Below are positions 1,784 to 9,870 of a DNA stretch of 53,721 nucleotides, piece after piece. The translations under genes were made by a program, and so were the position numbers. The notes beneath the pieces are model-generated. The model made no database searches and had not been told where the DNA came from. It was given only the letters and a program-made list of their open reading frames with translations. Location of the stretch: the UHGV virus genome UHGV-0138535; one strand, given 5' to 3'. Every line of letters starts with the position of its first letter. The stretch's first letter is position 1. Source of the DNA: a virus.

Positions 1784-2227
1784 TTAGAAATAATCCTGAT
1801 CTGTTCCCCAGCGGTTATTCAGATACCCCACCAACCACACAAAACGCTCAATACTGATTAGCGGGGCGACCTTGCGATAATGCTTATCTAATATCAGCCG
1901 CGTGGCTTTATCGCTGTAGCCGTTCTTCTCTACCTCCGCTTTGCAGGCCGAAAGCGCGGCGCGGGCGGCAGTCTTTACGGCGTTAAATTGCGGCTCTGAC
2001 ATATTGAATAAGGCCATAGGATCACCATGTGTCAGTCCAATCCGGCGCGGCAGTCCAGCAAAAACCAATGAATGCGCTAACAGCCAATAAAGCGCGGGCT
2101 GCAAAAAGAATATTCCCAATGTCGTTAAATTCAGGAAGCGACCACGTAATAAACATACCCCCCCAGCATAATAACACTGATAACAGTCAGGGCCGCCAGG
2201 AAAACAAAAAGCGTAGCCAAAAGCCAC
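1784..2227 (-). CDS. hypothetical protein (start uncertain)
   Basis: 147-aa track ORF in co-directional gene array; N-terminal third hydrophobic and Cys-rich, true start may be internal (MALFNMSEP). Confidence 0.4.
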   Translation of the reverse strand: MAFGYAFCFPGGPDCYQCYYAGGVCLLRGRFLNLTTLGIFFLQPALYWLLAHSLVFAGLPRRIGLTHGDPMALFNMSEPQFNAVKTAARAALSACKAEVEKNGYSDKATRLILDKHYRKVAPLISIERFVWLVGYLNNRWGTDQDYF

Positions 2228-2260
2228 GCCCCCAACCAGTTAAAAAAGCTCTTAAGCATT

Positions 2261-2648: not shown

Positions 2649-2746
2649 ACATTACCTCATATGGTATTCAATAAACCATCTGATAAACAGGCATAAGGCA
2701 ATAAAACCCCAGCAACAGCACATATAAAACAATGTGTCGTCCATAA

Positions 2747-4211: not shown

Positions 4212-4474
4212 ACGCCAAACATCCCATTCAGTCCGGCGAACAATTTCCGCCAGTGGTTTTCAACATAAGCACGGAACGGCTTAACGCGAACATTGTGGGC
4301 CTTTAGTTCAATCTCATCAAAGTAGCGCGGTTCTATGATTGTTCCGTCCAGGTATTTAACCACTAGCGGGCGCTCGAGATCGTTATATATCTTATTCAGT
4401 ACAACCAGGCCAGGGTCATCACGATATTCAGGCAACACAACAAGATCACCAGCCTTTGCATCCCATGTTTTCAT
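4202..4474 (-). CDS. hypothetical protein
   Basis: Track ORF 4202..4477 begins with GTG; first ATG at 4474 overlaps upstream micro-ORF stop (TGATGA). Confidence 0.45.
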   Translation of the reverse strand: MKTWDAKAGDLVVLPEYRDDPGLVVLNKIYNDLERPLVVKYLDGTIIEPRYFDEIELKAHNVRVKPFRAYVENHWRKLFAGLNGMFGVWL

Positions 4475-4593
4475 CACGGCAACCCTCTAAAAATAAAGCT
4501 AACCAACGCAGCAAATGCGCCACAAGAAACAACCACAAACAGGAAGCAAATAATGCAAAACGCGACAGTCACAATATCCTTACCGACTTTCAT
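4474..4593 (-). CDS. hydrophobic micro-protein (39 aa, single predicted TM helix)
   Basis: ATG preceded by GAGG; MKVGKDIVTVAFCIICFLFVVVSCGAFAALVSFIFRGLP; not in ORF track (<60 aa). Confidence 0.4.
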   Translation of the reverse strand: MKVGKDIVTVAFCIICFLFVVVSCGAFAALVSFIFRGLP

Positions 4594-4601
4594 GATTGGC
4601 C

Positions 4602-4715
4602 TCACATGTTAGTAATGAGTTTAATGATCGCTACCGTGATATAAAGAGATACACTGAGATACAGCACGGCGATAGATAAAGCCGCAAGCAATGCGGCAAT
4701 TTTTGCAAAGCTCAT
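4602..4715 (-). CDS. hydrophobic micro-protein (37 aa, single predicted TM helix)
   Basis: ATG overlaps upstream stop (ATGA), preceded by GGAGGGTGG; MSFAKIAALLAALSIAVLYLSVSLYITVAIIKLITNM. Confidence 0.4.
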   Translation of the reverse strand: MSFAKIAALLAALSIAVLYLSVSLYITVAIIKLITNM

Positions 4716-4936
4716 TTGCCACCCTCCGCAATTAACTTATCAAGCCATTTGTTATTAGCCAGCCGTTCGGCATCTTCGCCGAATGATTTACGGTCGCTTA
4801 ATTCCTGGCGAGTAGGCTTAGGCCATTTATCGTGCCACCCTGCAGACGTTTCGAACTCATACAGGCCGCCGTCAAAACAAATAAGCTCATCACAACCGTC
4901 AGGAATTTCCTTGTCTACTTCTTTTTCTTCAATCAT
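4712..4936 (-). CDS. hypothetical protein
   Basis: 74-aa track ORF. Confidence 0.45.
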   Translation of the reverse strand: MIEEKEVDKEIPDGCDELICFDGGLYEFETSAGWHDKWPKPTRQELSDRKSFGEDAERLANNKWLDKLIAEGGK

Positions 4937-6437: not shown

Positions 6438-6728
6438 TTAATGGTAGCGGACTTTATCCAGGGGTTTTTCCCCTAAATGGCGTGGTTGCGTTGCGTGGTA
6501 GTAGCTGCCGCTTTCATTTTTCGTATACCATTTTACTGATCCTTTGCGACGTTCTTTAATGCTATTTGGTTTGCATCTTTCCTCGTTTGCAAATCGAATA
6601 GCTTTATCCACATTGTCTGTTTTATTGATTGCAGGTGATGATTTTCTTTCGTTTTCTCTTTTTATCCTTCTGCGTTCCCTGGCATTCATTTTGCTATCAC
6701 ATTTACCATATATAATTGTAACGCTCAT
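6438..6728 (-). CDS. putative N-like transcription antiterminator
   Basis: 96 aa; first gene downstream of cI; GGAG 7 nt before ATG; arginine-rich motif ARERRRIKRENERK near N-terminus like lambda/P22 N. Confidence 0.5.
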   Translation of the reverse strand: MSVTIIYGKCDSKMNARERRRIKRENERKSSPAINKTDNVDKAIRFANEERCKPNSIKERRKGSVKWYTKNESGSYYHATQPRHLGEKPLDKVRYH

Positions 6729-7229: not shown

Positions 7230-7877
7230 TTATGGCAGGTTTACGATCTTCGCATCAACCACCACGCCTATAATTTTTGATTCTGGATTCATAGGGATTG
7301 GCGGATACAGCGGATTGAGCGAACGTAAAAGCCTTTGACCTCCATCAATAATCAACTGTTTAAACGTCGGTATCTGCCCTTCCTCAAGCTGGGCTATAAC
7401 CAGTTTGCCGTCAATAGCTGGCGCGTGCGGGTCCACAAGTATCATCGTCCCCGCCGGGATGCTCAACCCCTGCGGCGCGTTCATTGATTCACCTTTGGCA
7501 ACCAGCCAGTAACTGTCATCTGAACAAATAACGCTAGTCGTAACGTGTCGTAATGCTGAACGCCTTGCGTCATCCATATTGTTTACTGTGTCCTTCCAGT
7601 CAATAACCGGGTAACTACCTAAATCACGCGGCGGCACGGCCTGAAGTGTATTAGAAACAGAATCATCAATGACCATGCCATCATGTGTAACAGTAAACTG
7701 CCGACGACCAAGCTCGCGCATAATCCGCGCAATATCTTCAAGATTTGGCTCTCGGCGACCGTTCAGCCAGTGTGACAGGCCGCCTTTAGTTATCCCCATA
7801 CGATCCGCGAGTGAATCCTGGCTCATGCCCTGCGCCCGCATGAGCTGCTTTGCTAAGTCATACCATTTTGTTTTCAT
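7230..7877 (-). CDS. CI-like prophage repressor (HTH plus S24 LexA-type peptidase domain)
   Basis: 215 aa; N-terminal HTH (SQDSLADRMGITKGGLSHWLNG), C-terminal peptidase with AKGESM serine motif. Confidence 0.85.
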   Translation of the reverse strand: MKTKWYDLAKQLMRAQGMSQDSLADRMGITKGGLSHWLNGRREPNLEDIARIMRELGRRQFTVTHDGMVIDDSVSNTLQAVPPRDLGSYPVIDWKDTVNNMDDARRSALRHVTTSVICSDDSYWLVAKGESMNAPQGLSIPAGTMILVDPHAPAIDGKLVIAQLEEGQIPTFKQLIIDGGQRLLRSLNPLYPPIPMNPESKIIGVVVDAKIVNLP

Positions 7878-8443: not shown

Positions 8444-9496
8444 ATGAAGTGGTTTAAGCATGACAGCGATGCGAACCGCGATGAAAAACTTCAAAACGTT
8501 TTGTTAGATTATGGCCTGGAAGGGTACGGGCTTTATTGGTATTGCCTCGAACTAATAACTTATGACGTAGATCAGCACAATCTGAATTTTGACCTACGAC
8601 ATGACGCGAGAATCATTGCGCGAAACGTCGGATCTACTGAAAAACGTATAGAAGAAATGATGAAATACTTCATCGAAATTGGTTTGTTTGAATGTTCTCA
8701 AGGCCACATAACTTGTTTAAAGTTATTGAAAAGGCTGGACCAATCAATGACTTCTAAAAGCGCTTACAGGGCCGCCATAAACACAGCGAAGGAGCAATTA
8801 AAATTAGAAAAGTTAATCAATCCAACACAAAAAGGTCATGATAGGGTCATGACCGGGTCAGGAAAGGGTCATGAATTAGAATTAGAAGTAGAAAAAGAAA
8901 GAGAAAAAGATATATACACTTCGTGTATTGTCGAAAATGAACAAAAAATGGTCAATCAGGATGGCGTAAACGAAGCGGCATTGCGTTGCCTTGCCTTCTA
9001 CAACGACAAGGCAGGATGCAAATGTCGTGATGCTAAGCCATTCGTAGAACTACTGACAGAAACAAAAACACGTAAAGCGTATACGGAGAATGAGATCACG
9101 TTAGTAATTGAGTGGGCTTTAACCCAATGGCGTAGCCGTGGTGGAGTACCTAAGCCTATCAACATTTGCCGGGTAACTAAATTTGATGGGTATCTGACTG
9201 ATGCTGAACAATGGCGCAAACTGTCAGCCACTGTAAACGCTGCCGACGTGGTGGAAGCATTTAACAGCACGTTTGACGGCCTGTTACCACCTGCCGAACT
9301 GGATCGGGATCTTGAACGCAAGATCTATGCGTTCACTGACTACCTGAAAGACAAAAGCATTAACGGCTTTGTCGCCTACTTCGAAACGTTCAAAAACACG
9401 GCTTCAGATTTTTACTTCGGCGATGGCTTCACCGCGACACTTGATTTCCTGCTTAAACCAAAAACGCTACGTGATACGCGCGCTGGCGTTCTTTGA
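8444..9496 (+). CDS. replication initiation protein (DnaD-like N-terminal replisome organiser domain)
   Basis: 350 aa; N-terminus MKWFKHDSDANRDEKLQNVLLDYGLEGYGLYWYCLE typical of phage replisome organisers; precedes helicase. Confidence 0.7.
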   Translation: MKWFKHDSDANRDEKLQNVLLDYGLEGYGLYWYCLELITYDVDQHNLNFDLRHDARIIARNVGSTEKRIEEMMKYFIEIGLFECSQGHITCLKLLKRLDQSMTSKSAYRAAINTAKEQLKLEKLINPTQKGHDRVMTGSGKGHELELEVEKEREKDIYTSCIVENEQKMVNQDGVNEAALRCLAFYNDKAGCKCRDAKPFVELLTETKTRKAYTENEITLVIEWALTQWRSRGGVPKPINICRVTKFDGYLTDAEQWRKLSATVNAADVVEAFNSTFDGLLPPAELDRDLERKIYAFTDYLKDKSINGFVAYFETFKNTASDFYFGDGFTATLDFLLKPKTLRDTRAGVL

Positions 9497-9629
9497 CCAA
9501 TCACGATCCGCAAAAATCCAAAATTACCCACAAAACAACCTCACCAGCGAGCTAAATCGCATGTGGTGCTACACTTGCTTACCTTTTTGCGATTAGCTCG
9601 TTATAGAGCGTTACGGAGAGGATTTTAAA

Positions 9630-9731
9630 ATGGACGGTAAACACGTTTTCGCCCTGGCTTTTGCCATCGCTGCGGCAATCGCTGTTAACGTCGCCTTGTT
9701 CGGCGGTCTGTACCTGCTAATCAATCCATAA
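9630..9731 (+). CDS. hydrophobic micro-protein (33 aa, single predicted TM helix)
   Basis: ATG preceded by GGAGAGG; MDGKHVFALAFAIAAAIAVNVALFGGLYLLINP; not in track. Confidence 0.35.
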   Translation: MDGKHVFALAFAIAAAIAVNVALFGGLYLLINP

Positions 9732-9870
9732 CCTACCTACCATTCTGTAAATCGAAAATTAGCCACCTGATGGCGTCTCTGACGCAATAAGACACTGCAA
9801 CCTGTGCAAACGGGTGTCGCGGTGGGTTTTTGCGTTGTAGCGCGCATGATGTTCTTAAGGAGTTGGAGCG

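Follow-up and report, generated by a model that had tools for sequence, protein, structure and literature searches.

Three micro-genes in the early operons of an mEpimmI-group coliphage and the single-helix membrane proteins that they very probably encode

The window analysed here, the whole 53,721-nucleotide stretch of DNA from the virus genome UHGV-0138535, comes from a temperate coliphage of the mEpimmI group (mEp021-like), a prophage of Escherichia coli. It carries three micro-genes, referred to as A (4602..4715, minus strand, 37 codons), B (4474..4593, minus strand, 39 codons from its ATG) and C (9630..9731, plus strand, 33 codons), which start with ATG and whose peptides read MSFAKIAALLAALSIAVLYLSVSLYITVAIIKLITNM, MKVGKDIVTVAFCIICFLFVVVSCGAFAALVSFIFRGLP and MDGKHVFALAFAIAAAIAVNVALFGGLYLLINP, respectively. 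All three are very probably real coding genes, each for one membrane-spanning helix. We lean, if only slightly, towards the wider proposal that they are mutually unrelated coding genes for bitopic, one-helix micro-proteins of 33-39 residues, which act via specific partners. A and B belong to the early-left operon, where the N-like protein Gp17 acts as antiterminator. C is found in the opposite early operon, that of the replication genes, directly after the initiator gene and ahead of a conserved terminator-like hairpin.

The coding evidence for A and B was drawn from 62 loci that cover their slot, namely the window, seven GenBank phages, 14 RefSeq prophages (74-100% DNA identity) and 40 IMG/VR contigs. 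A is intact in every one of them, at 35-39 amino acids (aa) in 61 loci and read from an upstream ATG in the remaining one, and B is intact throughout at 38-40 aa. These loci hold 34 unique DNA and 26 unique protein sequences of A, and 39 and 33 of B; the differences in length are of whole codons only. The ratio of non-synonymous to synonymous divergence (dN/dS) was calculated according to Nei-Gojobori over all pairs; a control with unchanged relatedness was obtained by reading the same alignments out of frame by one or two bases. In frame it is 0.19 for A versus 0.85 and 1.53 in the shifted readings, and 0.27 for B versus 0.86 and 1.14; the uncontested flanking genes of 74 and 90 aa give 0.18 each. 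Variable columns are most frequent at the third codon position, with 24/19/35 over positions 1/2/3 in A and 21/22/35 in B. Since synonymous divergence in this region is saturated between the remotest lineages, the open frames are not merely young. For C, the frame is whole in 41 of the 46 loci that are informative; its dN/dS is 0.15, and its variable columns (10/9/24) likewise peak at the third position. The initial annotation had named loss of these frames in related phages as the outcome that would speak against the genes; what is found in the relatives is that the frames are kept in these proportions and evolve under purifying selection as read there.

A very different explanation would make the peptide sequence irrelevant: the frames might be translated only for ribosome coupling or to avoid Rho-dependent polarity, or the DNA might serve as a regulatory element such as a terminator in A. 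There is indeed a terminator-like hairpin at 4681-4697 inside A (GCCGCA-N5-TGCGGC followed by TTTAT), which the mEp021 entry MH706966 lists as TERM_2, and the stop/start overlaps of A and B with their neighbours amount to tight coupling. Against this, the U-tract is lost in many relatives, the hairpin is absent in one lineage in which the ORF (open reading frame) is intact, and the hairpin is a by-product of Ala-Ala-Leu (GCN-GCN) codons. The hairpin, which is terminator-like in both directions, was rejected as a conserved element, since relatives do not keep it as a terminator. Moreover, dN/dS is 0.15-0.27 in frame but close to 1 when the other frames are read, which shows that selection acts on the amino-acid sequence itself, and in the C-terminal half of A a dS of 0.88 against a dN of 0.14 places the constraint on protein rather than DNA. 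This explanation is therefore highly improbable. An antisense ORF of 62 codons across B (4456..4644, plus strand) was also discarded, being interrupted in 31% of the unique sequences (open in 69%).

The translation signals of the three genes are as well defined as their frames. A is preceded by the Shine-Dalgarno sequence GGAGG (4723..4727, minus strand), 7 nucleotides ahead of its ATG and still within the 3' end of the preceding 74-aa gene, in a ribosome-binding site that reads GGAGGGTGG; GGAGG stands ahead of the ATG in all variants listed. The ATG of A overlaps the TGA of the 74-aa gene (ATGA), an overlap kept in 61 of the 62 loci. The Shine-Dalgarno sequence of B, GAGG (4600..4603, minus strand), overlaps the TGA stop of A (TGAGG), 6 nucleotides ahead of the ATG of B; TGAGG is kept in most variants listed and is replaced by GGGGTGAG in one lineage (5 loci). 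At its other end B shares bases of its TGA with the start codon of the 90-aa gene that follows (TGATG), and this stop/start overlap occurs in all loci. A mechanical ORF list gives B in a 43-codon form with a GTG start; gene callers and the relatives use the ATG. These overlaps, together with a Shine-Dalgarno site for each gene, couple the translation of A and B to that of the adjacent genes. C has the Shine-Dalgarno sequence GGAGAGG (9615..9621, plus strand) 8 nucleotides ahead of its ATG, of which the core AGAGAGG/GGAGAGG is kept in relatives. The initial annotation had placed the three ORFs at these coordinates with these ribosome-binding sites (GAGG, GGAGAGG and, for A, GGAGGGTGG) and had described start/stop overlaps of A and B with their neighbours, here seen as ATGA and TGATG; on all these points it was confirmed.

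A and B are core genes of the mEpimmI group: they are present at the syntenic position in each of the 62 loci, and every one of the 35 E. coli genomes with the group's replication module has them. Of 5,426 complete E. coli genomes, 35 carry the A/B region, and it is these 35 that also carry the region of the replication genes and C. In STEC306, STEC307 and STEC308 a KilA-N gene of 714 nucleotides is inserted exactly in the 8-nucleotide spacer between A and B (L014 589..1302 in STEC308), and from this mosaic junction, of a type usual at gene boundaries in mosaic phage genomes, we conclude that A and B behave as separate gene modules. C, by comparison, is an accessory, exchangeable cassette. In one lineage, represented by three contigs, its start is changed from ATG to ATT together with a Leu to Gln replacement, and in three loci its slot is occupied by a gene for a 77-aa MarR-like winged-helix protein between the same conserved non-coding flanks (e.g., L026 475..708, L106 2201..2434). 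A dispersed repeat flanking the cassette was looked for in the window and none was found.

The best 19-residue Kyte-Doolittle windows score 2.39 for A, 2.85 for B and 2.55 for C, well above the transmembrane threshold, and the 19-residue means lie at 2.4-3.0 over all members of the three families. Whole peptides have a grand average of hydropathy of 1.5-1.8. AlphaFold2 models A as one continuous helix over residues 3-36 (predicted local distance difference test, pLDDT, 95.3) and B as one over residues 3-37 (pLDDT 88.1). The initial claim of one hydrophobic helix for each ORF thus agrees with the hydropathy of A, B and C and with the AlphaFold2 models of A and B. From the basic residues, the positive-inside rule predicts a topology with the N-terminus inside and the C-terminus outside for B and C; for A it gives no clear answer.

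Conservation along the peptides is uneven. In A, residues 19-37 (YLSVSLYITVAIIKLITNM) are almost invariant, and the N-terminal half is variable yet always hydrophobic; the conserved residues of the nearly invariant half include S23, Y25, T27 and K32-I34. In B it is the N-terminal half, MKVGKDIVTVAFCIICFLF, that is conserved (the MKVGKDIV..AFC..CF segment), followed by a variable C-terminal tail. In C, Asn20 in the middle of the helix and Gly25 are invariant and Gly26 is nearly so. An Asn in the middle of the membrane and a Gly-Gly pair both drive the association of helices within membranes. The invariant S23, Y25 and K32 of A and N20 and G25 of C, at the dN/dS values of 0.15-0.27 reported above, represent residue-specific purifying selection beyond hydrophobicity. 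B contains VVSC, which might suggest a lipoprotein (lipobox [LVI][ASTVI][GAS]C); this was rejected, as most relatives have VVFC or VVLC, which violate position -1, and one lineage is without the Cys.

In a collection of 5.8 billion proteins, which was searched with A and C padded by in-frame upstream residues and with B in its GTG-extended form, A retrieved 55 clusters (68-100% identity, all of 35-39 aa), B 26 clusters, of which two are frameshifted singletons, and C 20 clusters, all with the 33-aa core; the identical C peptide occurs on 456 contigs. The named sources of all these matches are E. coli or Caudoviricetes metagenome bins. Comparison with Pfam, NCBIfam and PADLOC gave no match for A, B or C at E <= 1 beyond noise, and PHROG gave none either. 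A common origin of A, B and C was considered and rejected at profile-profile probabilities of <2%. A, B and C are three unrelated families, confined to the mEpimmI group in the databases searched.

How might such proteins act? We propose that the peptides would be made upon infection or induction from Gp17-antiterminated transcripts, would insert in the inner membrane and would there contact a larger host or phage membrane protein by sequence-specific helix packing, and not by bulk damage to the membrane. Specific contacts are preferred because selection keeps particular residues and not hydrophobicity alone. The step to a specific partner is tentative, possible rather than probable, and is built on the conservation pattern and on analogy, since the searches returned no characterised homologue and no match of the A profile outside the group. 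An action on host membrane processes early in infection, as had been put forward in the initial annotation, is plausible.

Several observations weigh against the proposal of coding genes with specific partners. Within these searches no homologue of A, B or C with a known function was found, and the profile of A, run against 1.84 billion representatives, returned four matches, all of its own family (one of them a fusion of A and B by deletion) and none outside the phage group. The conserved half of A is not limited to one helical face, and such a spread would fit homo-oligomerisation or pore formation too. C is lost or replaced in ~10% of relatives and hence dispensable. Disrupted forms do occur, if rarely: P0080, P0081 and P0103 comprise two frameshifted B genes and one A-B deletion fusion, each on a single Logan-assembled contig, and may be assembly errors or cases of occasional gene loss. 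Finally, of the 15 RefSeq prophages inspected, 14 have no annotation of A and B from the Prokaryotic Genome Annotation Pipeline (PGAP).

The analogy behind the specific-partner step is with small bacterial membrane proteins. MgrB (47 aa, PhoQ), AcrZ (49 aa, AcrB), KdpF (29 aa, in KdpABC) and UgtS (34 aa) are such proteins, of which the first three are named as acting on larger membrane proteins (PMC12648545). Like these, A, B and C have fewer than ~50 residues, a single predicted transmembrane helix, no enzymatic domain, a narrow taxonomic range and specific conserved residues in or near the helix. Unlike them, they are encoded by a phage, belong to early lytic operons and not to stress regulons, and have no sequence similarity to any of the four. 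A further parallel is Gp11 of the Staphylococcus phage PhiNM1, a small membrane protein from an early gene, which stops cell division and has MurG and DivIC as its binding partners (PMC11237401). A, B and C resemble it in being small products of early genes of a temperate phage with a predicted membrane helix; they differ in the phylum of the host and share no detectable homology with it, and toxicity and target have been demonstrated for Gp11 alone. Small single-helix proteins in the early regions of phages are a known and common kind, to which A, B and C add members.

A parallel of another kind leads to a different reading, in which the three peptides would be toxins that act on the membrane without a specific target, comparable to type I toxins or holins; they would oligomerise in the inner membrane, dissipate the proton-motive force and stop host metabolism early in the lytic cycle. 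Hok, TisB, LdrD, IbsC, ShoB and Fst are hydrophobic single helices of 19-50 residues, often found on prophages or plasmids, and A, B and C share with Hok, TisB, Ldr and Ibs-type toxins their size, the single helix and a very high hydrophobicity. Some of these toxins reside in prophages (PMC12648545; PMC8309996). The mid-membrane Asn and the GG of C would favour self-association, and the conservation of A over more than one helical face is in line with it as well. On the other hand, the toxin reading has to contend with the lack of any match to a Pfam type I toxin family at E <= 1, and with a locus of the wrong kind: no promoter-like site for an antisense RNA was found on the opposite strand (4400-4800 and 9500-9800), Rfam gave no match in the whole window, and A and B are coupled inside a long operon (61-62 of 62 loci), where a stand-alone locus with a structured leader would be expected. 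The lack of an opposite-strand promoter-like site and the embedding in operons disfavour a type I toxin-antitoxin locus. Furthermore, depolarisation at an early stage would be costly to a phage whose lytic cycle still needs energy, and selection as strong as that on the neighbouring globular genes exceeds what bulk hydrophobicity needs. On balance, general toxicity to the membrane is rather unlikely.

Two related candidates were rejected. A, B and C do not qualify as holins or antiholins: A and B lie between abc2 and unassigned early genes and C after the initiator, and not in a late lysis cassette, and their C-terminal flanks of 0-6 residues with at most one basic residue provide no charged domain. 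Nor do they qualify as Kil. A and B are like the Kil proteins of lambda and P22 in their position in the early-left operon, beside recombination and anti-RecBCD genes and downstream of N. Lambda Kil, however, is a soluble FtsZ inhibitor of 47 aa without a transmembrane helix; for A, B and C a transmembrane location is predicted, and they match neither Pfam nor PHROG families. A separate 'Kil-like' protein is listed for the mEpimmI group (PMC11893012).

It is also conceivable that the three peptides serve in superinfection exclusion or against host defence: located in the inner membrane, they would block DNA entry of other phages or neutralise a membrane-bound defence protein of the host. Many exclusion proteins are small inner-membrane proteins (reviewed in PMC11436027 and PMC10883804). 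The neighbouring abc2 is an anti-RecBCD counter-defence gene, and the slot of C, between conserved non-coding flanks, is exchangeable in the manner of a moron. Expression, however, argues in the opposite direction, as no sigma-70-like promoter for expression from the prophage was found next to A, B or C, and A and B lie well inside an operon that the lysogen keeps repressed. PADLOC, in addition, gave no match, and the exclusion function that has been demonstrated in the mEpimmI group belongs to a lipoprotein (PMC11893012) and not to A, B or C. We consider an exclusion or anti-defence role unlikely. The computation presented here does not separate the toxin, exclusion and specific-partner readings from one another.

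The three genes are part of a larger load of membrane micro-genes in this genome. A fixed filter (ATG, Shine-Dalgarno core, 30-45 codons, hydrophobic window >=2.0) retains six ORFs in the window versus 0.22 +/- 0.46 in 100 dinucleotide-preserving shuffles, which exceeds chance. The nine-gene array that the initial annotation had mentioned is present at 41593..42331 (minus strand), flanked by the gene for the small terminase subunit and by a 180-aa gene that belongs to phrog_1365, and is composed of nine tandem ORFs of 20-34 codons with one hydrophobic helix each. Its slot in 46 relatives contains 3-12 such ORFs, nine being the commonest number, so that the array expands and contracts. The count of at least twelve micro-peptides given at the outset is correct and rises to thirteen with a 30-codon single-helix gene in the early-left operon (2652..2744, minus strand; mEp515_38), which encodes a Cys/Trp-rich hydrophobic helix, MDDTLFYMCCCWGFIALCLFIRWFIEYHMR. 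This gene is present in 39 of the 40 IMG/VR loci and has a dN/dS of 0.08, a stronger constraint than that on A, B and C. At least thirteen membrane micro-genes in the genome are thus supported. The coding status of a further hydrophobic ORF of 42 codons with GAGG in the same operon (2131..2259, minus strand) is doubtful, a similar ORF being found in only 1 of 40 relatives. That the load is unusually high, as had been stated, agrees with a strict filter that finds eight micro-ORFs in the window versus one in lambda and three in 35 loci (~115 kb, one strand) of unrelated phages that share the replication-protein family. In lambda itself (L144) an unannotated hydrophobic ORF of 26 codons with a Shine-Dalgarno sequence (MTIYITELITGLLVIAGLFIWGRGKS) was observed between ren and ninB (40567..40647, plus strand).

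It is tempting to regard the thirteen or more micro-proteins, made up of A, B and the 30-residue peptide of the early-left operon, C, and the array with its variable number of 3-12 peptides upstream of the terminase genes, as a coordinated and modular toolkit, each member of which would plug the transmembrane domain of a different inner-membrane machine of the host (divisome, DNA-entry transporters, membrane-bound defence), with A and B as an obligate heteromeric pair. We judge this improbable; if true, it would constitute a new strategy of host takeover or counter-defence via transmembrane 'plug' peptides. The specific-partner proposal asks for less, and if A, B and C do bind specific host membrane proteins they could become compact probes or inhibitors of those targets. 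They are well-defined candidates for expression and toxicity screens. Their interest is raised somewhat by the core status, the strong constraint and the unusual number of such genes in the group, which is prevalent in the human gut. As the frames of A and B are constrained like those of their neighbours, three families, or four with the 30-codon gene, are added to the core and accessory set; should the proteins prove ordinary, the annotation would still be corrected.

Nothing in phage genomes is less well annotated than small single-helix proteins, and the record of A, B and C illustrates this. GenBank equivalents exist as mEp010_29, mEp010_30 and mEp010_14, and also in mEp013, mEp044, mEp515, mEp554 and MagusPhagus (73-97% identical); they were called by PHANOTATE or Pharokka and are labelled only 'hypothetical protein'. 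The original mEp021 record omits all three and has its terminator where A lies, and A and B are missed by PGAP in nearly all carrier prophages. The ORFs are not mentioned in PMC11893012 and its supplements. Ipe, the haemolysis-inducing protein of mEp021, was considered as a possible identity and rejected on length (72-83 aa).

The surroundings of the genes support their assignment to early operons. The mEpimmI phages are Nus-dependent, non-lambdoid temperate phages in which Gp17-dependent antitermination is known (PMC11893012). The region around A, B and C is 87-90% identical to mEp010, mEp013, mEp044, mEp515, mEp554, mEp021 and MagusPhagus and 100% identical to a prophage in E. coli MS 21-1. 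On the minus strand the gene order runs from the CI-like repressor (7230..7877) and the N-like antiterminator (6441..6728; phrog_271, Gp17 in the naming of PMC11893012) over erf, ssb, abc2 and the 74-aa gene to A, B and the 90-aa gene, followed by small unassigned genes. Because A and B come after repressor, antiterminator, erf, ssb and abc2 on one strand, the label 'early-left operon' used in the initial annotation is apt in the lambda sense. The placement of the 33-codon ORF after the replication initiator holds too, since C at 9630..9731 is the next gene downstream of the initiator (8444..9496, plus strand). Among the immediate neighbours, sequence searches of the Protein Data Bank with the 90-aa and 74-aa proteins gave no match, and the 90-aa protein had no relative in a scan across bacterial species, each represented by a single genome. 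PGAP labels the 90-aa gene 'toxin-antitoxin system toxin subunit', a label that no NCBIfam model backs.

Conserved non-coding elements lie on both sides of C. The 134-nucleotide spacer between the initiator and C contains a conserved inverted repeat (9547..9601, plus strand) with the arms GCGAGCTAAATCGCA and TGCGATTAGCTCGT and a loop of ~26 nucleotides; its RNA fold has a z-score of -3.3, and the flanking sequence is kept even where the MarR-like gene replaces C. This repeat might act as an origin or an operator, or in processing. Downstream of C is a highly conserved non-coding stretch of ~80 nucleotides (9752..9832, plus strand), with the small hairpins GCCACCTGATGGC and GCGTCTCTGACGC and a longer hairpin at 9793-9824 that is followed by GGTTTTTG; in relatives its inner stem shows a U.G to C-G change. 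The stretch looks like a terminator and is possibly a nut-like site. Elsewhere in the window, the tail-fibre (J-like) region holds seven copies of a 59-nucleotide unit at a spacing of 108 nucleotides, with one gap of 246 nucleotides (20679..21523), in agreement with the variable repeats in J reported for the mEpimmI group (PMC11893012).

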